DNA from: an uncultured Acidobacteriota bacterium
GTDB taxonomy: Bacteria > Acidobacteriota > Thermoanaerobaculia > Multivoradales > SZUA-115
Assembly (NCBI GenBank): GCA_963805975.1
Contig: CAWDVR010000002.1
Coordinates: 768,001-832,000, forward strand
Direction: 5' to 3'
DNA length: 64,000 nucleotides
Part shown: positions 31,383 through 48,401 of the stretch, one piece after another
How the letters are laid out: the number at the start of each line of letters is the position of its first letter
Position numbering within the stretch: position 1 is the stretch's first letter
Translations under genes and position numbers: made by a program
Notes under the pieces: generated by a model
Databases searched by the model: none
Told to the model about the DNA's origin: nothing
Seen by the model: only the letters and a program-made list of their open reading frames with translations

Positions 31383-31683
31383 AGGGTGATTCTATGGCCG
31401 GGAGGCGAGCCGCCGGCTCAACCGGTGCGCTGCGCGGGCCTGGGGCGAGGCAGGAAATAGACGTTCGACCAGGGCCGCAGAAGCGCCCGGCACTCGCGCT
31501 GCGACAGAGCTCGGGAGGCGACGGCCCTGGGCGCACGAGGGCGCCGGGAAGCGAGGATCGGATCGACGCCGCGTTCGAGCACCGCAGCGAGCAGCCACTG
31601 GCAGAGCGTGCGGCGCGCGGCTGAGCCGCGAAAGGTCGTCACCCGAGCATCTTAGCCGCGATGGAACCACGTGTACCTTGCCC

Positions 31684-31726
31684 ATCGTCCATCACGTGGA
31701 CGATAATCGTCCACGTGATGGACGAT
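31684..31726. promoter_or_regulatory. Perfect 43-bp nested palindrome (two ATCGTCCA-N5-TGGACGAT units) over the promoter and start codon of the DUF4143 gene
   Basis: ATCGTCCATCACGTGGACGAT-A-ATCGTCCACGTGATGGACGAT; candidate -35 TTGCCC at 31678 and -10 GATAAT at 31702; ATG at 31718. Confidence 0.75.
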
Positions 31727-32953
31727 TATCAGATCCTCCCTCGCCTGGCTTCCGGCCTGCTCCAACGTGTCATGGAGGTTTCGCCAGTGGTCGTGGTGAT
31801 GGGTGCTCGCCAGACCGGAAAGAGCACTCTCGTCCAATCCGAACCCTCGCTCGCAGATGCGCTCTACCTGACCCTCGACGATCTCGCCGCACGCGAGCGG
31901 GCGATAACCGCCCCGGACGACTTCGTACACAGCGCGCCCCGCCTGATCCTCGACGAGGTCCAACGCCAGCCGGAGCTGGTCCTCGCCATCAAGCGGGCCG
32001 TCGACCGTGATCGCCCGCGTGTCCCCGGCCGCTTCGTGGTCACCGGCTCGGCGAACCTCCTGCTCATGCAACGGATCTCCGAGACCCTGGCCGGCCGGGC
32101 AACCTACGTCACCCTGTGGCCGCTCTCGCGGCGGGAAAAGCTGGGGTTGGGGCGGGCCGGTCTCTGGGACGAGCTCTTTTCGACGCCGCCCCGTCAGTGG
32201 TACGACCTTCTTCGGCAGCAGCCGCCTCGGTCGGTAAGCTGGGAGGCCGAGGTCCGAGTCGGGGGCTACCCGACGCCCGCGGCGGAGCTCAGGTCAGACG
32301 CAGATCGAGCGATCTGGTTCGATGGCTACTTGCGGACCTACCTCGAGCGCGACCTCCAAGACCTCGCCGCGATCGACAACCTGCTGGACTTCCGGCGCCT
32401 GATGCGTGCGACTTGCCTGCGGCTCGGCAACCTCGTCAACCAGGCCGAGCTGGGGCGGGACACGGGCATTCCTCGTCCCACCGTTCATCGCTACCTGAAC
32501 CTCCTCGAGACATCCTTTCAACTGGTGCGCTTGGAGCCCTATGCGGTCAACCGGACCAAGCGACTCATCAAGGCTCCCAAGCTCTACTGGAGCGACCCTG
32601 GCCTGGCCCTCTACCTGAGCGGCCTCGAGCAGCCAACGGGTTTTCACCTGGAGAACCTCGTGCTCGTGGATCTCCTCGTCTGGCGCGATGCACAGGTGCC
32701 GCGGCCGGAGGTTCTCTACTGGCGCACGGCCGCCGGGCTCGAGGTCGATTTCGTCATCGAGCACCGCCGCGGGCTTCTACCCATCGAGGTGAAGGCTACG
32801 TCCCGACCGGGATCGAAAGATATCCGCGCGCTGCAAGCGTTTCGCGACGAGTACCCTGACCTCTTCCTCGGCGGCCTGCTGCTCCACGATGGCGAGGAGA
32901 CGCAGTGGCTCTCGGACTCCATCCTCGCGGTCCCCTGGCATCGGGTCGTCTGA
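31718..32953 (+). CDS. AAA_14 ATPase with wHTH and DUF4143 / PD-(D/E)XK C-terminal domain
   Basis: GARQTGKST, LILDEVQ, VTGSAN, ETLAGR, HTH (AELGRDTGIPRPTVHRYL), KAPKLYWSD, EVDFVIE..IEVK. Confidence 0.92.
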   Translation: MDDYQILPRLASGLLQRVMEVSPVVVVMGARQTGKSTLVQSEPSLADALYLTLDDLAARERAITAPDDFVHSAPRLILDEVQRQPELVLAIKRAVDRDRPRVPGRFVVTGSANLLLMQRISETLAGRATYVTLWPLSRREKLGLGRAGLWDELFSTPPRQWYDLLRQQPPRSVSWEAEVRVGGYPTPAAELRSDADRAIWFDGYLRTYLERDLQDLAAIDNLLDFRRLMRATCLRLGNLVNQAELGRDTGIPRPTVHRYLNLLETSFQLVRLEPYAVNRTKRLIKAPKLYWSDPGLALYLSGLEQPTGFHLENLVLVDLLVWRDAQVPRPEVLYWRTAAGLEVDFVIEHRRGLLPIEVKATSRPGSKDIRALQAFRDEYPDLFLGGLLLHDGEETQWLSDSILAVPWHRVV

Positions 32954-34194: not shown

Positions 34195-35961
34195 ATGGAG
34201 CAAGGGAAGAATAGAAAAGTATGCCCTCGCTGGCGGGCTGCCGCGCTCGCGGGAGTGCTGGCTGCCACGGGGACTACCGCCGCAGTCGCGGCCCCTCACC
34301 ATTCGACGTTCGTGGATCAGTCCGTGCTGTCGGTGATGGAGCCGGGCAAGGCCTACCGCGTGCGGGTGCGGCTCAAGAACACGGGGACGAACACCTGGAG
34401 CGCGGCGCAGAGCTACCGCCTCGGCTCGCAGAACCCGCAGGACAACATGACCTGGGGCCTCAACCGCGTCAACCTGCCGGCAGGGCTGAGCGTCCCGCCC
34501 AACGCCATCCACGAGTTCGTCTTCGACGTCCAGGCGCCCTCGGCCGCCGCCACCTACAACCAGCGCTGGCGGATGGTGCGCGAGGGGGTCGAGTGGTTCG
34601 GCGACTTCACGCCGAACGTGGCGGTGCGCGTCAACTCGAACCTGGGCTGGAAGGGCACGCACCTCTCTCGCATGTGCCGGGTGTGGGCGCTCGGCAACCT
34701 CGGCGCTCGCCAGACCGTGCCGGGCGTGAGCTATCTGGACCTCGCGGACCGCGTGGCGCAGGCTGGCTGCCGCCTGCTCAACTGGGGAGGCTCGGGCTGG
34801 GACAAGGCCACCGACGGGCACGCCTTCGCGGCGACCGATCCCTACTGGGACCGTGCCGAGGCGTTCATCCACCGCACCAAGACGGGCAACCCCGAGGCAC
34901 GCTTCATCTACACGCTGGCCGAGGTCATGCACCCGAGCAAGGTGGCAACGGTGCAGGAAGGGCTCCCGGTGTGGACGGACATCGCGCCCCTCGAGTGCCT
35001 GCGCGACTCCCCGGCCCTCAAGCGCTACATGTTCCGCTGGTTCTTCAAGGAAAACGACGACGTGGTGTGTACCCCTGCCGGCCAGCCGGTGCCGGCCGGG
35101 GGCTGCCGCTGCTCCACGCACCCGACCTGCCCGTCGAACCATTTCTGCCCTGCCACCACGACCAACCCGGAGTGGGTGAACCACATCCCAGACGTGCGGC
35201 AGGAAGCGACGAAGGTCTGGTGGGCGAAGCTCGCGAGCCACGCCTGCAGCAGCGGTTTCGAGGACATCAACTTCAGCCTGGCTTTCCGCTCGGCCAGCCT
35301 CGACTGGCCCGCCTATGGGAACCTCCAGGAGATCATGAACCGGGTGCGAGCGGTCGCCTGCGGTGCGGACACCAGCTTCGGGGTGGAGGACCTGCGTCGC
35401 GCGCCGGAGGGCGCGCCACCGCTGGCCAGCATCGGCGAGCGCTTCCTCAAGCGGATCGACAAGATCCAGAAGCTCTCGCCTGGCGAAACCTACAACAGCC
35501 GCGGCTGCTTCCAATTCGACAACGACCCCGGCCAGCCAGGGGACCTCTGCATCCCACGCGAGCGGTTCGAGACGCCGGGTTATCCCGCGAGCTACGGCTC
35601 GCCGTATGTGGAGCTCGACGGGGACTCTCGCTGGCGGTTCTTCACCGCGTCCTACGAGGCGCGCCGGCGGTTCCTGCTCCACAGCCTGCGCTCGGCGCGG
35701 GCGACCTACGGCAACGGCGTGCCGACCTTCTTCGAGGTGCCGATGGTCCTGCCGGTGCCGGCGGCGTCGTTCACCGAACAGTTGGGGCCCTTCGGCGATC
35801 CCATCGGTTGGAGCCTGACCTGGGACGACCTCGAGGACTCGGCCGGGCCGCTCCCGGTATGCTCGACACCCGCCTGGCCGGGCGGAGCGCCCTTCCCGGT
35901 TCACGGCGTCGCCGATCTCTGGTCGTGCGGCCACGGGGACCTGTTCCCCGCGAGCTGGTGA
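34195..35961 (+). CDS. Secreted hypothetical protein: NBR1-like Ig domain followed by a Cys/Trp-rich unknown domain
   Basis: Signal peptide; 'RLKNTGTNTW...YRLGSQNPQDN.TWG...WRMVREGVEWFG' Ig-like module; long ORF with GC-rich third positions. Confidence 0.7.
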   Translation: MEQGKNRKVCPRWRAAALAGVLAATGTTAAVAAPHHSTFVDQSVLSVMEPGKAYRVRVRLKNTGTNTWSAAQSYRLGSQNPQDNMTWGLNRVNLPAGLSVPPNAIHEFVFDVQAPSAAATYNQRWRMVREGVEWFGDFTPNVAVRVNSNLGWKGTHLSRMCRVWALGNLGARQTVPGVSYLDLADRVAQAGCRLLNWGGSGWDKATDGHAFAATDPYWDRAEAFIHRTKTGNPEARFIYTLAEVMHPSKVATVQEGLPVWTDIAPLECLRDSPALKRYMFRWFFKENDDVVCTPAGQPVPAGGCRCSTHPTCPSNHFCPATTTNPEWVNHIPDVRQEATKVWWAKLASHACSSGFEDINFSLAFRSASLDWPAYGNLQEIMNRVRAVACGADTSFGVEDLRRAPEGAPPLASIGERFLKRIDKIQKLSPGETYNSRGCFQFDNDPGQPGDLCIPRERFETPGYPASYGSPYVELDGDSRWRFFTASYEARRRFLLHSLRSARATYGNGVPTFFEVPMVLPVPAASFTEQLGPFGDPIGWSLTWDDLEDSAGPLPVCSTPAWPGGAPFPVHGVADLWSCGHGDLFPASW

Positions 35962-39903: not shown

Positions 39904-40281
39904 TCAGCCGCCGCCCGCCGCGCTCTCGCTGGGGCGCTCGTCGCGCCGCTCTTCGATGCGGGCTGCACGGCCCCGCAGATCGCGCAGGTAGTAGAGCTTG
40001 GCGCGCCGCACCTTGCCGCGGCGGACGAGCTCGATCTTGTCGAGCACCGGCGAGTGCAGAGGAAAGATCCGCTCGACGCCGACGCCGCCCGAGATCTTGC
40101 GCACGGTGAAGGTCTCGCGGACGCCGCCGCCCCGGCGGGCGATGATCACGCCCTGGAAGATCTGGATCCGCTCTTTACTACCTTCGACTACCCGCACGTG
40201 TACCTTGACGGTATCGCCGGGACGAAACTCTGGGATGCCGCCGCGCAGATACGCGGCCTCGACCTGCTGCAACTGGTTCAT
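39904..40281 (-). CDS. rplS: 50S ribosomal protein L19
   Basis: [35 protein letters not shown]. Confidence 0.98.
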
Positions 40282-40329
40282 CGTGACCTTCCCTTGAAAG
40301 AAAGAAACCCGAAAAGGAGACGCTCCGCA

Positions 40330-41079
40330 TCATTCCGCATCCGAGCCGGGGATTGCAAGTGTCGTCCGTGATTCACTTTGCGGCCGGTCGGCAGGGGCGA
40401 GGCGGGCCGGCGCCAGGAGGTCCGGGCGCTTGCGGCGCGTCGCCTCCAGGGCCTTCTCCCGCCGCCAGCGCTCGATGGCCGCGTGGTCGCCCGAGAGCAG
40501 CACCGCCGGCACCGGAAGACCCTCGACCTGCGGTGGCCGGGTGTAGTGGGGATGGTCCAGCAGGCCGCCGCGGAAGCTGTCGCGCTCGACCGAGCCGGCG
40601 AGCCCCACCACCCCGGGCACCTGGCGCGACACCGCCTCGATCAGCACCATGGCCGGCAGCTCCCCTCCCGACAGCACGTAGTCGCCAATCGAAACCTCCT
40701 CGTCCACCACCGTCTCGAGCACCCGCTCGTCCAGCCCTTCGTACCTGCCGCAGAGCAGCAGGAGCTCGCCCCTACCGCCCAGCTCGCGCACCTTGGCCTC
40801 GTCCAGCCGCCCCCCCTGGGGCGAGAGCAGAACCCGCCACGGCGCGCTCTCGCCACCCACCTCCCGCACCGCCCTGATCCACGGCGGCGCCGTCATCACC
40901 ATGCCGCCACCGCCGCCGTAGGGCTCGTCGTCGACGCTCCTGTGGCGGTCCTCGGTGAAGCCCCGCAAATCGTGGACCGCCACCTCGAGCAGGCCCTTCT
41001 CGATCGCCCGCCCCACCAGGCTGGTCCCGAGGAAGGTCGAGAACAGCTCGGGGAAGATGGTTATGACCTGGATGCGCAT
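40330..41079 (-). CDS. trmD: tRNA (guanine-N1)-methyltransferase
   Basis: VDDEPYGGGGGMVM, CGRYEG, SIGDYVLSGGE, YTRP, LLSGDH. Confidence 0.97.
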   Translation of the reverse strand: MRIQVITIFPELFSTFLGTSLVGRAIEKGLLEVAVHDLRGFTEDRHRSVDDEPYGGGGGMVMTAPPWIRAVREVGGESAPWRVLLSPQGGRLDEAKVRELGGRGELLLLCGRYEGLDERVLETVVDEEVSIGDYVLSGGELPAMVLIEAVSRQVPGVVGLAGSVERDSFRGGLLDHPHYTRPPQVEGLPVPAVLLSGDHAAIERWRREKALEATRRKRPDLLAPARLAPADRPQSESRTTLAIPGSDAE

Positions 41080-41618
41080 GCTTCGACGAGGCCGGGAGGC
41101 AGATCGAGCTCGATCGACCTCGCCTCGACATCGATCGAGCGGATGAAGCGCTCGACGAACGGCACCAGCACTTCACCCGCCGGCCCCGAGACCACCAGCA
41201 TCTGCCCGCCGCCCTCCTCCACCAAGTCCGTCACCTCGCCCAGCACGCCGGCCTCACGGTCGTGGCAGCGGCAGCCGACGAGCTGGAACTGGTAGAAGGC
41301 GCCCGCAGGGGGCGGCGGCACCTCGTGCGGCTCGACCTCCAGGGTCGAGCCCCGCAGCGCCTCGGCCGCGTTGCGGTCCGCGACGCCCTCGAAGGTGACG
41401 AGGGAGAAGCCCTTGTGCGGCCGGGCCGCCGCCACCGTGAGAGCGCGCCGGCCACCGCGCCGGTCCACTGCCGTGAACTCGCGGCCCTCCGCCAACCGCC
41501 CGGGCACATCGGACAGCAGCTCCACCGCCACCTCGCCGCGAATGCCATGGGCGTGGTGGACGACGCCGACCACCACGGTCTCGGCCGGCTGGCTAGTCGT
41601 CGAGGATCTCGAGACCAT
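41061..41618 (-). CDS. rimM: 16S rRNA processing protein RimM
   Basis: HGIRGEV, DRNAAEALRG, FYQFQLVG, VPFV; operon context. Confidence 0.92.
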   Translation of the reverse strand: MVSRSSTTSQPAETVVVGVVHHAHGIRGEVAVELLSDVPGRLAEGREFTAVDRRGGRRALTVAAARPHKGFSLVTFEGVADRNAAEALRGSTLEVEPHEVPPPPAGAFYQFQLVGCRCHDREAGVLGEVTDLVEEGGGQMLVVSGPAGEVLVPFVERFIRSIDVEARSIELDLPPGLVEACASRS

Positions 41619-41856
41619 ACTGCGCGCTCTCGGCGTCCCCACGGCAATCGAGCAGCGTGCGCAGCGCGCGGGCCGTCCGGCCGCGGCGGCCGATCACCTG
41701 GCCCATGTCCTCGGGGGCCGCCGTCACCTCGAAGACTGTGGCGCGGCGCATCGGCACCGCCACCACCGACAGCTCCTGCGGCTGGTCGACGATCTGCCTC
41801 AGCAGGCTTTCGAGGTCCGCGCGGACCGCTTCGGGGTCGGATCTGGGCTCGGACAT
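41593..41856 (-). CDS. khpA: KH-domain RNA-binding protein
   Basis: EDMGQVIGRRGRTARALRTLL; lies between rpsP and rimM. Confidence 0.9.
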   Translation of the reverse strand: MSEPRSDPEAVRADLESLLRQIVDQPQELSVVAVPMRRATVFEVTAAPEDMGQVIGRRGRTARALRTLLDCRGDAESAQYGLEILDD

Positions 41857-41878
41857 GGGAGTGGATCAGGAGCCCGGC

Positions 41879-42109
41879 TCAGGCGCGGCCAGCGAGGCTC
41901 TTGACCGTCTCGGAGACCTGGGCGCCCTTGCTCACCCAGTAGTCGTAGCGCTCGCGGTCGAGCTTGACCTCGGCCGGCTTGCGCTCGGGATCGTAGTGGC
42001 CGATCTGCTCGACGGCCGCGGCCCTGGGGGTGCGGCGGCTGTCAGAGACCACCACCCGGTAGAAGGCGCGGTTGGTGGTGCCGGTGCGCCGCAGTCGAAT
42101 CGTCAACAT
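41879..42109 (-). CDS. rpsP: 30S ribosomal protein S16
   Basis: MLTIRLRRTG...FYRVVVSDSR...GHYDP...GAQVSETV. Confidence 0.97.
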   Translation of the reverse strand: MLTIRLRRTGTTNRAFYRVVVSDSRRTPRAAAVEQIGHYDPERKPAEVKLDRERYDYWVSKGAQVSETVKSLAGRA

Positions 42110-42255
42110 GGCTTTGGAAGGACCTCCGGGGGTTGTTTCGACGCACGGCGAGCGTTCCGCCCAGCCGCGCGAAGCGTCGGATGCTACCAGGAAGCCGGAC
42201 CAGGCGCCAGTCCCGGGCGGGCTCGGCGGCCCGGAGAGCATGTTACGCTGTCGCC

Positions 42256-44148
42256 ATGACCAAACGTCTCACGACTCCCATGGTTCGCGACCGGCGCGGA
42301 GCGCCGCTCCGGCCGGCGACCTGGGACGAGGCGTTGGATCGAGCCGCCGCCGGCCTCTCCTCCGTGGTGGAGGCCCGCGGCCCGCGCGCTTTCGGGCTCT
42401 TCAGCTGCTCGAAGGCGACGAACGAGATGAACTACGCGGCGGGCAAGTTCGCGCGCGCGGTCATCGGCTCGAACAACGTCGACAGCTGCAACCGCACCTG
42501 ACACGCCCCGAGCGTCGCCGGTCTGGCGACTGTGTTCGGAGCGGGTGGCGGCACGAGCTCCTACCAGGAGATCGAAGAGACGAGTTGTATCTTGCTGTGG
42601 GGCTCGAACGCGCGGGAGACGCACCCGATCTTCTTCCACCATCTGCTGAAGGGCATGAGAAACGGCGCCCGCCTCTACACGATCGACCCGCGCCGCACCT
42701 CCTCGGCCGCCTGGGCCGACCTGTGGGCCGGGCTCGAGGTGGGCACGGACATCGCGCTCGCCCACACCATGGCGCGGGAGATCATCGCCGCCGGGCTCGT
42801 CAACCAGGAGTTCGTCGAGCACGCGACCAGCGGCTTCGAGGCCTATCGTGAGTCAGTCGAGCCCTGGACTCTGGAGCGCGGCGCGGCCGAGACCGGCGTG
42901 CCGGCGGCGGTGATCCGCGAGATCGCCCACGCCTACGCCCAGGCGCCCCGCGCCATGATCTGCTGGACGCTCGGCATCACCGAGCACCACAACGCGGTCG
43001 ACAACGTGGTGTCGCTCATCAACCTCTCGCTGCTCACCGGCCACGTCGGCCGCTACGGCTCGGGGCTCAACCCGCTCCGGGGCCAGAACAACGTCCAGGG
43101 CGGCGGCGACATGGGGGCGCTCCCCGACCGCCTGCCCGGCTTCCAGCACCTGGAGAACGCGCCGCTGCGCGAGAAGTTCGAGGCCGCCTGGGGCGCCAGG
43201 ATCCCGCCGCAGGGCGGCTGGCACCTCTCGGGGATGTTCGACGCCATGGAACGCGGCGAGCTCACCGCCCTCTACGTGATCGGCGAGAACCCGTTGCGCT
43301 CCGAGGCGGACCAGCACCGGGCGAGGAAGCTGCTCGAGGGCCTCGAGTGCCTGATCGTGCAGGACGTGGTCGAGACCGCCACCTCCGAGATTGCGGACGT
43401 GGTGCTGCCGGCGGCGGCGGGCTGGTGCGAGTCCGAAGGTACTGTCACCTCGAGCGAGCGGCGGGTGCAGCGGGTGCGTCGCGCCCTGCCGCCGCCGGCC
43501 GGCGCCCGCGACGACCTCGAGATCATCTTCGGCCTGGCCAACCGCCTGGGCAAGAGCTGGGGCGAGCCCGACCCCGAGGCGCTCTGGAACGAGCTGCGGA
43601 CCGTCTCCCCCATGCACGCCGGCATGAGCTATGCGCGGCTCGAGGCCGAGGGCGGCATCCAGTGGCCCTGCTACGACGACCACCACCCGGGCGAGCTCTT
43701 CCTGCACAGCCGGCTCTGGGAGCGGCCGGTGAAAGGGCCGCGGGCGCCCTTCAGCGTGGTCGAGCACGACCTGCCGGTCGACCGCCTGGACGACGATTTC
43801 CCGATGCGCCTCACCACCGGCCGCCGGCTCGAGGAGTACAACACCGGCGTGCAGACGGCGGGCTACAGCTCGCCGGTGCGCCGCGGCGAGACCCTGGACC
43901 TCTCCCCCGAGGATGCCGTGCGGCTGGGTTTCGCCGAGGGCGAGAGGGCGCGTGTCTCGTCGCGCCGCGGCAGTGTCGAGGCGCCGGTGCACATCGACCC
44001 CGCCCTGCGGCCGGGGCTGTCGTTCATGACCTTCCACTTCCCCGAGGAAGTGCCCACCAACCTCCTCACCATCGATGCCACGGACCCGCGCTCCGGCACG
44101 GCGGAGTTCAAGGCGACGGCGGTCCGCATCGAGCGCCCAGAGGCCTGA
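42256..44148 (+). CDS. Selenocysteine-containing Mo/W-bisPGD formate dehydrogenase-like catalytic subunit (in-frame UGA 42499-42501)
   Basis: ORFs 42133-42501 and 42532-44148 share one frame and join as NNVDSCNRT-U-HAPSVAGL; also NPLRGQNNVQGGGDMG and LTTGRR; SECIS follows the UGA. Confidence 0.9.
42499..42536 (+). promoter_or_regulatory. Bacterial SECIS element
   Basis: UGA, 12 nt, then GUCGCC-GGUCU-GGCGAC hairpin (42514-42530) resembling the E. coli fdhF SECIS apical loop. Confidence 0.8.
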
Positions 44149-44151
44149 GCC

Positions 44152-46080
44152 TTGGACATCCGGGTCACCGGCGCCGAGCCGAGCGCGGAGGAGCGGGCGG
44201 CGGTCGATCGACTGCTCGGGCCGGCGCCTTCGAGCTGGGAGGGCGGGGAGCGGGGCCGGGGTGAGGACGCGCGGTCCGCTCGCGCCGGCTTCCACGAGTC
44301 CCGCGAGCGGCGGGACCTGCTGCTGCCGGCGCTCCACGCCGTGCAGGACCGCGTGGGCTGGATCAGCGAGGGCGCGCTCAACTACATTTGCCTGCGGCTG
44401 ATCGTGCCGCCCGCCGAGGCCTGGGGCGTGGTGAGCTTCTACCACCTGTTCGCGACCGAGCCCCGGCCGCCGCTGGTGGTCCACGTCTGTGACGACCTCG
44501 CCTGCCGGCTCCACGGCGCGGAGCGGCTGTGCACAGCTCTCGAGCACTCGGCAGGGCCGGAGCGAGCGCCGCTCGCCGGCGGCCGCACCACCTGGCAGCG
44601 CAGCCCCTGCCTCGGCCAGTGCGAGCGCGCCCCGGCGGTGCTGGTCCAGACCGCCGGCGAGGCGCCGCACGCCGAGGTGCTGGCCCCGGTGGCGGAGGCG
44701 GACGTGCTCGGTGCTCTCGGCCTCGCCCTGGACCGAGTGCAAGTACCTGCCGCCGGAAATGACCTGGAGGCAGTGCCGGATCGCCTCGCCGCAGCGCGCG
44801 TGTCCACACCCCAGGCGGGAAGCGACGGCCTGCGGCTCCTCGCCCGGGTCGGCGTGGTCGACCCCGAGAGCCTCGAGGCCTACCGCGCGAGCGGCGGCTA
44901 TCAGGCCCTCGCCCGCGCCCTGGAGCTGGGACCCGCGGGCGTGACCGGAGAGGTGCTGGCCTCGAAGCTCCTGGGCCGCGGCGGCGCCGCCTTCCCCACC
45001 GGCCGCAAGTGGCAGGCGGTGGCCGCGGCCCCGGCCCTGCCGCGCTACCTGGTGTGCAATGCCGACGAGTCCGAGCCCGGCACGTTCAAGGACCGGGTAT
45101 TGCTCGAGGAAGACCCCTTCGCGGTCGTCGAGTCGATGACGATCGCGGCTTTCGCCTGCGGCTGCGAGCGCGGCTTCGTCTACCTGCGCGGCGAGTACCC
45201 TCTCGCCCACCGGCGCTTGGATAACGCCATCGCCGCGGCACGGCAGGCCGGTCTCCTGGGCGACGACGTGGCCGGTTCGAGCTTCCGCTTCGATCTCGAG
45301 ATCCGCCGCGGCGCTGGCGCCTACATCTGCGGCGAGGAGACGGCGCTCTTCAACTCGATCGAGGGCAAGCGCGGCGAGCCGCGCTCGAAGCCGCCGTTCC
45401 CCAGCGAGTTCGGCCTGTTCGGCAAGCCGACGGTGGTCAACAACGTCGAGACCCTGGCCAACGTGCCCTGGGTCCTGCGCGAAGGCGGCGCGGCCTTCGC
45501 CGCGCTCGGCAGCGGCGGCTCGACCGGCAGCAAGCTGTTCTGCGTCTCCGGCCACGTCACCCGGCCGGGTCTCTACGAGGTGCCGTTCGGCACCACGCTG
45601 GGAGAGCTGCTGGAGCTGGCGGGCGGGGTCGCCGGGGGGCGAAGCCTCGCGGCCATCCTCTTGGGCGGGGCCGCGGGCGCCTTCGTGGGGCCGGAGGCTC
45701 TCGCCACCCCTCTCACCTTCGAAGGCACCCGCGCCGCGGGCGCCACGCTCGGCTCGGGCGTGGTGCTGGTCTACGACGAGACCGCCGACTTGGGCGACGC
45801 CCTGCTGCGCGTCGCGAGCTTCTTCCGGCACGAGTCCTGCGGCCAGTGCGTGCCCTGCCGGGTGGGCACCGTGCGCCAGGAAGAGCTGCTCCAGCGCTTG
45901 CGCCGAGCCCGGCCCCTGGGCTCGCGGGCCGAGGAGCTGGCGCTCTTTGCCGAGCTCTCGCAGGCGATGCGCGACGCCTCGATCTGCGGCCTCGGCCAAA
46001 CCGCCTCCTCCGCCATCGAGTCCGCCCTCGCCCGCTTCGATCCCTTCCCTGCCGCCCCTCCCTTTGGAGCGCAGCCGTGA
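44152..46080 (+). CDS. NuoE-NuoF fusion (NAD/FMN-binding diaphorase subunit)
   Basis: CDDLAC..CLGQC 2Fe-2S; GRGGAAFPTG, NADESEPGTFKDR, GAGAYICGEET, ESCGQCVPCR..SICGLG. Confidence 0.92.
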   Translation: MDIRVTGAEPSAEERAAVDRLLGPAPSSWEGGERGRGEDARSARAGFHESRERRDLLLPALHAVQDRVGWISEGALNYICLRLIVPPAEAWGVVSFYHLFATEPRPPLVVHVCDDLACRLHGAERLCTALEHSAGPERAPLAGGRTTWQRSPCLGQCERAPAVLVQTAGEAPHAEVLAPVAEADVLGALGLALDRVQVPAAGNDLEAVPDRLAAARVSTPQAGSDGLRLLARVGVVDPESLEAYRASGGYQALARALELGPAGVTGEVLASKLLGRGGAAFPTGRKWQAVAAAPALPRYLVCNADESEPGTFKDRVLLEEDPFAVVESMTIAAFACGCERGFVYLRGEYPLAHRRLDNAIAAARQAGLLGDDVAGSSFRFDLEIRRGAGAYICGEETALFNSIEGKRGEPRSKPPFPSEFGLFGKPTVVNNVETLANVPWVLREGGAAFAALGSGGSTGSKLFCVSGHVTRPGLYEVPFGTTLGELLELAGGVAGGRSLAAILLGGAAGAFVGPEALATPLTFEGTRAAGATLGSGVVLVYDETADLGDALLRVASFFRHESCGQCVPCRVGTVRQEELLQRLRRARPLGSRAEELALFAELSQAMRDASICGLGQTASSAIESALARFDPFPAAPPFGAQP

Positions 46081-46985
46081 GCACCGACCCGATCTGGTTC
46101 AACCCGGCCCCGCCGCCGTCTCGCGTGCCGGCGGCGCCGCCCCGCGCGCCACGACCGCAGGTGGAGCTCTCGATCGACGGCCAGGCGGTCACCGTGGAGC
46201 AGGGCGCGACCGTGCTCGAGGCCTGCCGGAAAGCCGGCGTCGAGGTGCCGACCCTCTGCTACCTGGAGACGCTCACGCCGGTCAACGCCTGCCGCCTCTG
46301 CGTGGTGGAGCAGGAAGGCGCGAGGGTGCTGGTGCCGGCCTGCTCGCGCAAGGCCGAGCCGGGGATGAAGATCCACACCAACTCGGAGCGCGTGCGGCTG
46401 TCGCGCAAGCTGGTGCTGGAGCTCCTGGGCTCGTCAGTCGATCTCTCGACCGCTCCCGGCCTGGCCGAGACCATGGCCGAGTATGGCGCCCGCCCGGAGC
46501 GCTTCGGCACCGGTGCCACCGTGGCGCAGCCGCCCAAGATCGACAACGACCTCTACGTGCGTGACTACGGCAAGTGCGTGCTTTGCTACAAGTGCGTGGA
46601 GGCCTGCGGCTACGACGCCCAGAACACCTTCGCCATCGCCGTGGCCGGCCGCGGCTTCGACGCCCACATCTCGACCGAGTGGGACGTGCCGCTGCCCACC
46701 TCGGCCTGCGTCTACTGCGGCAACTGCATCGCCGTCTGCCCCACCGGGGCGCTGATGGCGAGCCCCGAGTTCGAGCTGCGCCGCGAAGGAAAATGGGACG
46801 AGTCCCGCCAGACGAAGACCGACACCATCTGCGGCTACTGCGGCGTGGGCTGCACCCTCACCCTGCACGTCCAGGACGAGCGCATCGTCAAGGCCACCTC
46901 GCCCTTCGAGAACTCCGTGACGCAGGGCAATCTTTGCGTCAAGGGCAGGTTCGGGTTCGAGTTCGTGCAGAAAGGGCGGGGCTAG
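46077..46985 (+). CDS. Fe-S subunit: 2Fe-2S, two 4Fe-4S and a C-terminal Molybdop_Fe4S4 domain
   Basis: PTLC..CRLC..C; CVLCYKCVEAC; CVYCGNCIAVCP; TICGYCGVGC...LCVKGRFG. GTG start overlaps the upstream stop. Confidence 0.9.
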   Translation: MSTDPIWFNPAPPPSRVPAAPPRAPRPQVELSIDGQAVTVEQGATVLEACRKAGVEVPTLCYLETLTPVNACRLCVVEQEGARVLVPACSRKAEPGMKIHTNSERVRLSRKLVLELLGSSVDLSTAPGLAETMAEYGARPERFGTGATVAQPPKIDNDLYVRDYGKCVLCYKCVEACGYDAQNTFAIAVAGRGFDAHISTEWDVPLPTSACVYCGNCIAVCPTGALMASPEFELRREGKWDESRQTKTDTICGYCGVGCTLTLHVQDERIVKATSPFENSVTQGNLCVKGRFGFEFVQKGRG

Positions 46986-48308
46986 CTAGCCGCCCAGCGC
47001 CCGCTTCAGCCAGCTTCCCTTGACGCCCTTGAGCATCTTGCGCATGCCCTTGTACTGCTTCAGGAGCTTGTTGATGTCCTGGACGGTGGTGCCGGAGCCC
47101 TGGGCGATGCGCCGCTTGCGGCTGCCGTCCAAGAGCTGAGGCAGGCGGCGCTCGCGGGCGGTCATCGAGTTGACGATCGCCTCGACGCGCTGCAACTGGC
47201 TCTCGTCCACGTTGGCGGCGTCGAGCCCCTTGAGCGGCCCCACCTTGGGCATCAGCTCCATCACCTGGCCCAAGGGCCCCATCTTCCGCAACTGGCGGAG
47301 CTGATCGCGCAGGTCCTCGAGCGTGAACTCGCGGGAGATCAGGCGCTTGGCCAGGCGCTCGGTCTCGCCCGAGTCGAGCCCCTTTTCGGCCTTCTCGATC
47401 AGCGACAGCACGTCGCCCATGCCGAGCATGCGCGAGGCGATGCGGTCCGGGTGGTAGAGCTCCAGGTCGTCGGCCTTCTCGCCCATGCCGACGTAGCGGA
47501 TCGGCACCTGGGCAACAGTACGGATCGAGAGCGCCGCTCCGCCGCGGCTGTCGCCGTCGAGCTTGGTCAGGATGACGCCGGTGAGCGGGAGCTGCTCGGC
47601 GAACTCCTGGGCGCTCTTGACCGCGTCCTGGCCGGTCATGGCGTCGGCCACGAAGAGGGTCTCGGAGGGCTTGATGAGCTCGGCCAGCGCGCGGATCTCC
47701 TGCATCAGCGCCGCGTCCACGTGCAGGCGGCCGGCGGTGTCGACGATCACTACGTCGTGGCCGCGGTCCTTCGCCTCGCGGATGGCACGGGGAGCGAGCT
47801 CGAGCACCGTCTCGCCCGGCTGCGGTGTCGCCACCGCCACTCCCACCCCGGCCCCCACCTGCCGGAGCTGCTCGACGGCCGCGGCGCGCTGCAGGTCGCC
47901 GGCCACCAGCAACGGGTGGCGGCCGCGGGCCTTGAGCTGCTTGGCGAGCTTGCCGGCGGTGGTGGTCTTGCCCGAGCCCTGGAGGCCGCAGAGCATGACC
48001 ACCGTGGGACGGCCGTCGAGCTTGAGCTCGGCCCCGGCACCGGGGCCGCCCAGGAGCTCGATCAGCTCGTCGCGGACGATCTTGATCACCTGCTGGGCGC
48101 CCGACAGGCTGGCCAGCACCTCCTGGCCCTCGGCCCGCTCGCGCACGCGGTCGATGAACGGCTTGACCACACGCACGTGGACGTCCGCCTCGAGGAGCGC
48201 CAGGCGCACCTGGCGCAGCGCCCCGGCCAGCACGTCGGCGGAGATGCGGCCCTCACCCCGAAGCTGGTGAAAGACCTCTTGCAGCTTGCCCTGGAGACCG
48301 TCGAACAT
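46986..48308 (-). CDS. ffh: Signal recognition particle protein
   Basis: LLEADV, GLQGSGKTTT, DTAGRLH, TKLDGDSRGG, GMGDVLSLIEK, SRKRRIAQGSG. Confidence 0.97.
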   Translation of the reverse strand: MFDGLQGKLQEVFHQLRGEGRISADVLAGALRQVRLALLEADVHVRVVKPFIDRVRERAEGQEVLASLSGAQQVIKIVRDELIELLGGPGAGAELKLDGRPTVVMLCGLQGSGKTTTAGKLAKQLKARGRHPLLVAGDLQRAAAVEQLRQVGAGVGVAVATPQPGETVLELAPRAIREAKDRGHDVVIVDTAGRLHVDAALMQEIRALAELIKPSETLFVADAMTGQDAVKSAQEFAEQLPLTGVILTKLDGDSRGGAALSIRTVAQVPIRYVGMGEKADDLELYHPDRIASRMLGMGDVLSLIEKAEKGLDSGETERLAKRLISREFTLEDLRDQLRQLRKMGPLGQVMELMPKVGPLKGLDAANVDESQLQRVEAIVNSMTARERRLPQLLDGSRKRRIAQGSGTTVQDINKLLKQYKGMRKMLKGVKGSWLKRALGG

Positions 48309-48401
48309 GGATTGCACCTCGTGGCGCCACCCTGACGATCGGGCGGCGGGAGGCGGATGCTACCACCGGCGGAAGGGGCCGGCGCTGCTAGAATTCCCGA
48401 C

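Follow-up and report, generated by a model that had tools for sequence, protein, structure and literature searches.

A gene for a putative formate dehydrogenase (FDH) in an uncultured Acidobacteriota bacterium is divided by an in-frame UGA, which raises the questions of whether this codon is read as selenocysteine (Sec) and what enzyme the gene and its neighbors encode. The gene lies in a stretch of 64,000 nucleotides, here called the window, which corresponds to C2:768001-832000 of a genome of 5.36 Mb in 6 contigs that is 96% complete. The four aligned contig sets are relatives, no listed piece covers the entire stretch, and these sets give no firm evidence on the UGA codon. The features of the locus, with two further genes of the same genome, are as follows.

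42256..44148, + strand: catalytic Mo/W-bis-MGD subunit, putative formate dehydrogenase, 630 aa, with Sec82 (predicted), His83, and Arg275
42499..42501, + strand: in-frame UGA at the metal-ligand column, predicted Sec codon from the alignment to FdhF residue 140 and the TGA of relatives
42514..42530, + strand: bacterial SECIS-type hairpin with a 6-bp stem and a GGUCU loop (42520-42524), from folds and conservation
44152..46080, + strand: fused NuoE-like ([2Fe-2S]) and NuoF-like (FMN, NAD(H), [4Fe-4S]) diaphorase subunit, 642 aa, from profile and domain matches
46077..46985, + strand: separate Fe-S subunit, 302 aa from GTG, with PF13510, PF12838, and PF04879
C3:622607-622834, - strand: likely SelW/Rdx-family selenoprotein, 76 aa, CxxU, TIGR02174 at 58.9 bits (cut-off 34.2)
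C3:209057-209620, - strand: likely AhpD-like selenoprotein, 188 aa, CxxU, TIGR01926 at 107.9 bits (cut-off 81.8)

The in-frame UGA and the ligand column

The frame that starts at the ATG at 42256 encodes 630 residues and features a single internal TGA at 42499-42501, which is codon 82 in the context SCNRT-U-HAPSVAGL and is followed by 548 open codons. An ORF scan splits the gene into two parts that share a frame, 42133..42501 and 42532..44148, as the original prediction described. Alignment with E. coli FdhF (PDB 1aa6) places codon 82 at the X of residue 140 in DCCARV-X-HGPSVAGL, in agreement with the earlier assignment of the TGA to the metal-ligand position. His83 and Arg275 correspond to FdhF residues 141 and 333, as counted from the alignment, and U82-H83 together with R275-G-Q match the C/UH and RGQ motif of class I enzymes in the available text of PMC8808070.

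The original prediction had called for an alignment of homologues to see whether Cys or Sec occupies this column. The alignment reveals a TGA at the ligand column in 109/109 related loci from several phyla, of which 80 come from a genome scan (among the matches listed, with at least 600 candidates) and 29 from the same class as the window. A one-off error is thus ruled out. The closest relatives among the matches listed belong to Acidobacteriota/Thermoanaerobaculia (76-82%), which would point to the lineage of the window. In one class of another phylum 212/294 genomes match at E ≤ 1e-100, a tally in which four genomes are marked as unpublished (G357, G385, G386, and G387; nothing else in this analysis depends on them), and all 150 matches listed of those 212 genomes carry one TGA. 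Cys codons (TGC/TGT) occur in 55 relatives, which were found in 3/401 genomes, 2/151 genomes, and 50 metagenome stretches with search patterns based on the family motif, the pattern behind the 2/151 count being too strict for known Cys genes. Cys also occupies the ligand column in 14 full-length protein records (13 named Saccharopolyspora), for which only the protein sequences were compared. One full-length homologue on a single contig, P0072, has an Arg at this column, one base away from TGA, which is possibly an error.

The ligand motif is missing from 105/120 of the best database homologues, and the commonest start of these records lies a few codons downstream of the motif, so the selenoenzyme nature of this family is under-annotated. 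The original prediction expected automated annotation to call the gene a pseudogene; the error that is seen consists of truncated records and not of pseudogene calls.

The hairpin and the selenocysteine machinery

The sequence GTCGCC-GGTCT-GGCGAC begins 12 nt past the TGA, where a hairpin had been predicted, and it forms at 42514-42530 in all four folds. Bacterial SECIS elements feature an apical loop 16–37 nt after the UGA (PMC10778597, available text) and a conserved G in the loop (PMC1794560, figure legend). The loop of this hairpin begins 18 nt past the UGA, and G22 and G23 are invariant in 102 sequences. The 44 nt after the TGA fold with a z of -2.65, and the other three windows give -0.32, -1.07, and -1.77; the folding energy of the hairpin alone is weak evidence. 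Among the 88,688 TGA triplets of the genome, 409 are followed by a 6-bp stem in the same register, and only 2 of these, one of which is the catalytic gene, also have a GGTCT loop.

The TGA and Cys forms were compared to see whether the hairpin is selected. The sets comprise 126 of 128 TGA loci (2 were outside the extraction pattern) and 49 of 55 Cys loci (after removal of duplicate and truncated ones). The six-pair stem is complete in 126/126 TGA genes vs. 1/49 Cys-codon genes, and the Gly codon of the loop is GGT in 120/126 vs. 5/49, while GGT makes up 7% (TGA set) and 6% (Cys set) of the other Gly codons of the same genes. These counts are not independent, since the sequences are kin and the Cys controls apparently belong to one or a few lineages, and the amino acids inside the stem differ between the two sets as well. 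In the 102 distinct sequences 612/612 cells are paired, a score that 0/500 shuffles attain. One stem pair changes from C-G to G-C in 12/102 sequences by two synonymous changes; it is the only pair with a two-sided change compared with the most frequent type, and after a shift of +3 columns 86% of the cells still pair. The extended lower stem is poorly conserved, with pair 15-33 present in 87/126 genes. The position and conservation of the hairpin are far beyond chance. In loci L111-L121 and L124 the hairpin survives two amino-acid changes (VV-GL-T vs. VA-GL-A), with a C-G pair becoming U-A. An Rfam search over 41000-48000 returned no SECIS family and one weak unrelated miRNA match, and a blastn comparison of this region with E. 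coli genomes gave a 42-nt napA match only. No sigma-70 promoter-like site was found, and the count of terminator-like sites equals that of shuffles.

The genome encodes the machinery that Sec insertion requires, with each component above its own family cut-off. SelA is encoded on C3 (PF03841, 439 bits), selB is located at C2:570783 (TIGR00475, 356 bits), selD lies on C5 (C5:432085-433011, - strand; TIGR00476, 255 bits), and selC is a 100-nt tRNA with a UCA anticodon (ARAGORN; RF01852, 71 bits). All four lie outside C2:768001-832000, as the original prediction had said of the window, and the search of the genome, in which their absence would have spoken against Sec, found every one of them. The four genes occupy separate sites on C2, C3, and C5, none of which adjoins the FDH operon. 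SelD ends a 797-codon open frame and appears to be the last part of a fusion with a long N-terminal domain, which we take to be of the NADH-dehydrogenase-like kind, and its motif has Cys and not Sec. By analogy with the E. coli system, SelB would bind the GGUCU hairpin and deliver Sec-tRNA(UCA).

A motif scan for selenoproteins gave 147 candidates, 30 of them with a hairpin, and recovered the catalytic FDH gene. Two of the three candidates that were examined are convincing CxxU selenoprotein genes, one of the SelW type and one of the AhpD type. The hairpin of the SelW-type gene shares its GGUCU loop with that of the FDH gene but lies 3 nt farther from the UGA, and the AhpD-like gene has a downstream hairpin whose loop differs from GGUCU. 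With these two likely selenoprotein genes and the four machinery genes, the earlier proposal that the organism uses selenium gains support. The third TGA candidate, C3:661844, was rejected, as the frame ahead of it does not look coding, and a search by codon bias for other in-frame TGAs was discarded because it missed the catalytic FDH gene, its own positive control.

Presence of selA also follows the form of the gene in relatives, as it is found in 45/48 genomes with the TGA form vs. 2/5 with the Cys form. In the other 3/48 TGA-form genomes selA was not found with TIGR00474. One of these three, G097, has the UGA form and is rated 100% complete in 700 contigs; its missing selA is likely an assembly gap.

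Two other readings of the UGA have to be weighed. If the TGA were a true stop in a pseudogene, or a misassembled TGC/TGT, the splitting of the gene by standard gene callers and the truncation of the 105 listed homologues would follow directly, but this is scarcely credible in view of a TGA in every one of the 109 loci across several phyla, the long open frame past the TGA, a selectively conserved hairpin, and full Sec machinery in the genome. Conservation in the aligned sequences effectively refutes it. Decoding of the UGA as Trp or Cys, whether through a changed genetic code or by a suppressor tRNA, is highly improbable. SECIS-directed recoding does have natural exceptions in other species (PMC10778597, available text), but in this operon UGA terminates both the catalytic gene and the next gene, the sole UCA tRNA at default stringency is the tRNA-Sec described above, and relatives exchange the UGA codon for Cys. 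From the combined sequence evidence UGA codon 82 is very likely read as Sec.

The recoding itself is ordinary textbook biology and is not new, because FdhA is the commonest bacterial selenoprotein and occurs in 67/75 Sec-using bacterial genomes, with frequent Sec-to-Cys conversions in Sec-FDH (available text of PMC1794560). In the available text of PMC5640789, a Sec FDH gene with a SECIS is reported from Amycolatopsis methanolica; its partner is fdoH, so it is of a different type.

An alpha subunit divided between two genes

The catalytic protein starts at the MGD-binding domains, with PF00384 at 4-429 and PF01568 at 517-621, both over cut-off. A Pfam scan reveals no PF04879 (Molybdop_Fe4S4) domain and no Fe-S cluster motif in it. 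The protein covers E. coli FdhF 58-686 and R. capsulatus FdsA 308-932, and it matches positions 51-672 of the TIGR01591 profile with 609 bits, under the cut-off of 666. A divergent gene begins ~150 bp upstream and leaves no room for an Fe4S4 domain ahead of the catalytic gene.

The missing part is found two genes downstream. The GTG of the Fe-S subunit gene overlaps the TGA stop of the NuoE-NuoF gene, and the protein features one [2Fe-2S] and two [4Fe-4S] sites as well as a C-terminal Molybdop_Fe4S4 domain with a CVKGRFG lysine that aligns with FdsA 295. This subunit is equivalent to the N-terminal third of FdsA, as it aligns with FdsA 18-302 and with positions 1-50 of the TIGR01591 profile. 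Side by side, the two gene products cover FdsA 18-302 and 308-932, and the profile divides likewise (1-50 and 51-672). The alpha subunit is therefore encoded by two genes with the C-terminal part first, and is not the single chain of FdsA or MeFDH1. Since the match stays under the whole-length TIGR01591 cut-off and the proximal [4Fe-4S] domain sits on the 302-aa gene, the catalytic chain is not a canonical FdhF/FdsA member; it nevertheless likely works like FdhF/FdsA. The identity of a formate-dehydrogenase-like catalytic subunit in the original prediction holds up, and what that prediction overlooked is that the subunit is split from its own Fe-S domains.

The same layout recurs in relatives. 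The order catalytic-NuoEF-FeS is found in 72/83 loci, with NuoEF downstream of the catalytic gene in 76/83, and 0/83 show an in-frame Fe4S4 motif preceding the catalytic gene. The 7/83 loci without NuoEF include 5 that end within 1.4 kb and 2 that carry other genes for 6 kb. In 19 loci the catalytic and NuoEF genes are separated by 0.9-3.9 kb of unrelated, varied genes. These interrupted loci (within L036-L100, mostly Chloroflexota by title) have inserts that include a serine dehydratase in two and an acetamidase/formamidase in two; a formamidase would plausibly supply formate. Sampled neighboring ORFs reveal no recurring fourth subunit or metal-transport gene, and fdhD is adjacent in 1/20 sampled loci. 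By record title the split layout extends over about six phyla: Acidobacteriota, Actinomycetota, Chloroflexota, Myxococcota, Methylomirabilota, and Planctomycetota. One doubtful Saccharimonadales title is also present among the split-FDH matches listed.

The split operon is widespread, and its only unusual trait is the Fe-S part on a separate gene. No description of a split and reordered alpha subunit was found in the openly accessible literature searched (supplements excluded), which included the Discussion of PMC8808070 and the available part of PMC13397495; the trees in the supplement of PMC8808070 might affect how new the split is. We consider it reasonably probable that a catalytic chain without an Fe-S cluster typifies a widespread soil-bacterial Sec-FDH family, with the proximal cluster and the lysine provided in trans, and that databases hide this family, as most database records start after the UGA.

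The predicted enzyme, its relatives, and its significance

The three genes likely encode a soluble, non-bifurcating, NAD-linked Sec formate dehydrogenase whose Fe-S wire comes from a separate protein encoded two genes downstream. As parts of this prediction, formate is the highly probable substrate and a three-chain NAD-linked complex is quite probable. By analogy with the E. coli enzyme, Sec82 would ligate the metal of the bis-MGD cofactor, and His83 and Arg275 would be active-site residues. The 302-aa protein would, from its homology, dock in place of the FdsA N-terminus and contribute both the proximal cluster and the CVKGRFG lysine. Electrons from formate would in that case enter at the metal, move through the proximal [4Fe-4S] cluster, two [4Fe-4S] clusters and one [2Fe-2S] cluster, and reach NAD+ through the [4Fe-4S] cluster and FMN of the NuoE-NuoF fusion without bifurcation.

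The path in FdsABG runs through A1, A2, A3, A5, B6, and FMN, and the His-ligated A4 cluster is off the path (PMC7171172, available text). The motif of the His-ligated cluster is found in 0/63 Fe-S subunit frames and is also missing from the gene in the window; because A4 is off the path, its loss leaves the wire unbroken. The A1-A2-A3-A5-B6-FMN path is complete by motif in the three-gene set. Beta subunits of bifurcating HydABC and Bfu-type FDH feature A/E232, M234, F367, and GGPSG (PMC7311640, available text). In the NuoF half the corresponding residues are T, K, Y, and GGAAG, so this half differs from the bifurcating pattern and has all three residues of the non-bifurcating kind.

Molybdenum is somewhat more likely than tungsten. 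The genome features fdhD, moeA, and modA, and tupA was not found with a PF12849 query, which gave a single match. That match is presumably a phosphate-binding protein, which tilts the choice towards Mo and does not settle it.

The catalytic chain resembles E. coli FdhF in having Sec, His, and Arg at the aligned positions 140, 141, and 333 (E = 5e-134 over FdhF 58-686) and a hairpin immediately after the UGA. Unlike here, FdhF has its own N-terminal domain, which holds a [4Fe-4S] cluster, ahead of residue 58, and it feeds formate hydrogenlyase, whereas the present catalytic gene neighbors a NuoEF diaphorase. The resemblance to FdsABG(D) from Rhodobacter capsulatus and Cupriavidus necator (PDB 6tg9) lies in the tiling of FdsA by the two genes and the NuoE/NuoF-like diaphorase; those enzymes feature a Cys ligand in contrast to the predicted Sec, have the A4 motif that is missing here, and have separate G and B subunits that are fused here. 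The alpha subunit of MeFDH1 from Methylorubrum extorquens features three [4Fe-4S] and one [2Fe-2S] clusters (one less than in R. capsulatus FdsA), and the MeFDH1 beta subunit equals FdsB plus FdsG (PMC10869683, available text). The same cluster inventory and a fused beta chain are predicted here; unlike the two genes in reversed order with a predicted Sec, MeFDH1 (PDB 7vw6, 7e5z) is a tungsten enzyme with a Cys ligand and an alpha subunit of one chain. Unsplit Sec-FDH alpha subunits of the same class (L125-L135) share the UGA column, a similar GGUCU hairpin, and the lack of a His-cluster motif, with 43-49% identity over the first 300 residues, but their Fe-S domains are fused in frame ahead (10/11 with two ferredoxin motifs).

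A selenoprotein with a substrate other than formate, e.g., an NADH-fed assimilatory nitrate reductase or some unknown Mo/W-bis-MGD oxidoreductase, is quite unlikely. The NasC and NasA models match the chain too (387 and 368 bits), the FDH model stays under its cut-off, and the family is uncharacterized, with cultured members that bear generic names only. Set against this, the 609-bit FDH match lacks only positions 1-50, and these are encoded by the partner gene; the ten best structure matches of the catalytic chain are FDH-family chains. The ligand is followed by His, where nitrate reductases have Met, and the Arg at FdhF 333 is kept. No nitrite-reductase or nitrate-transporter family is named among the sampled neighboring ORFs. 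An enzyme that is indeed a Sec FDH, but whose catalytic chain is modular, or whose complex serves another acceptor (NADP+, ferredoxin, or quinone) or mainly reduces CO2, is unlikely as well. The distance of the partners, 0.9-3.9 kb in 19 loci and >6 kb in 2, would suit such a chain, and in structure the NuoF half is closest to hydrogenase and Bfu beta subunits, but the prevailing three-gene order, the non-bifurcating residues, and the single close FDH catalytic gene found in the genome argue for the NAD-linked three-chain enzyme.

The recoding matters for annotation only, and the split is of greater interest. The FDH structures that were compared have the proximal cluster within the catalytic chain. 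If the cluster does reside in a separate chain, this would allow a test of what the cluster and the lysine add to catalysis, and the catalytic chain would be a detachable module that could serve as a modular CO2/formate catalyst. Three Cys-form genomes have the same three-gene layout, and these natural Sec and Cys forms offer a direct Se-versus-S comparison. The split family is common in some soil lineages, as in the class with 212/294 matching genomes.

The operon is flanked by what we take to be a ribosomal-protein/tRNA-methyltransferase cluster (39904-42109, - strand) and an SRP-like GTPase gene (46986-48317, - strand), and thus presumably sits inside an ffh-rpsP housekeeping block. Elsewhere in the window, a gene at 31661-32953 (+ strand) encodes an AAA_14 and DUF4143 ATPase, and a 588-aa ORF at 34195-35961 (+ strand) features an N-terminal Ig-like NBR1 domain (PF16158) followed by a Cys-rich remainder without a Pfam match.
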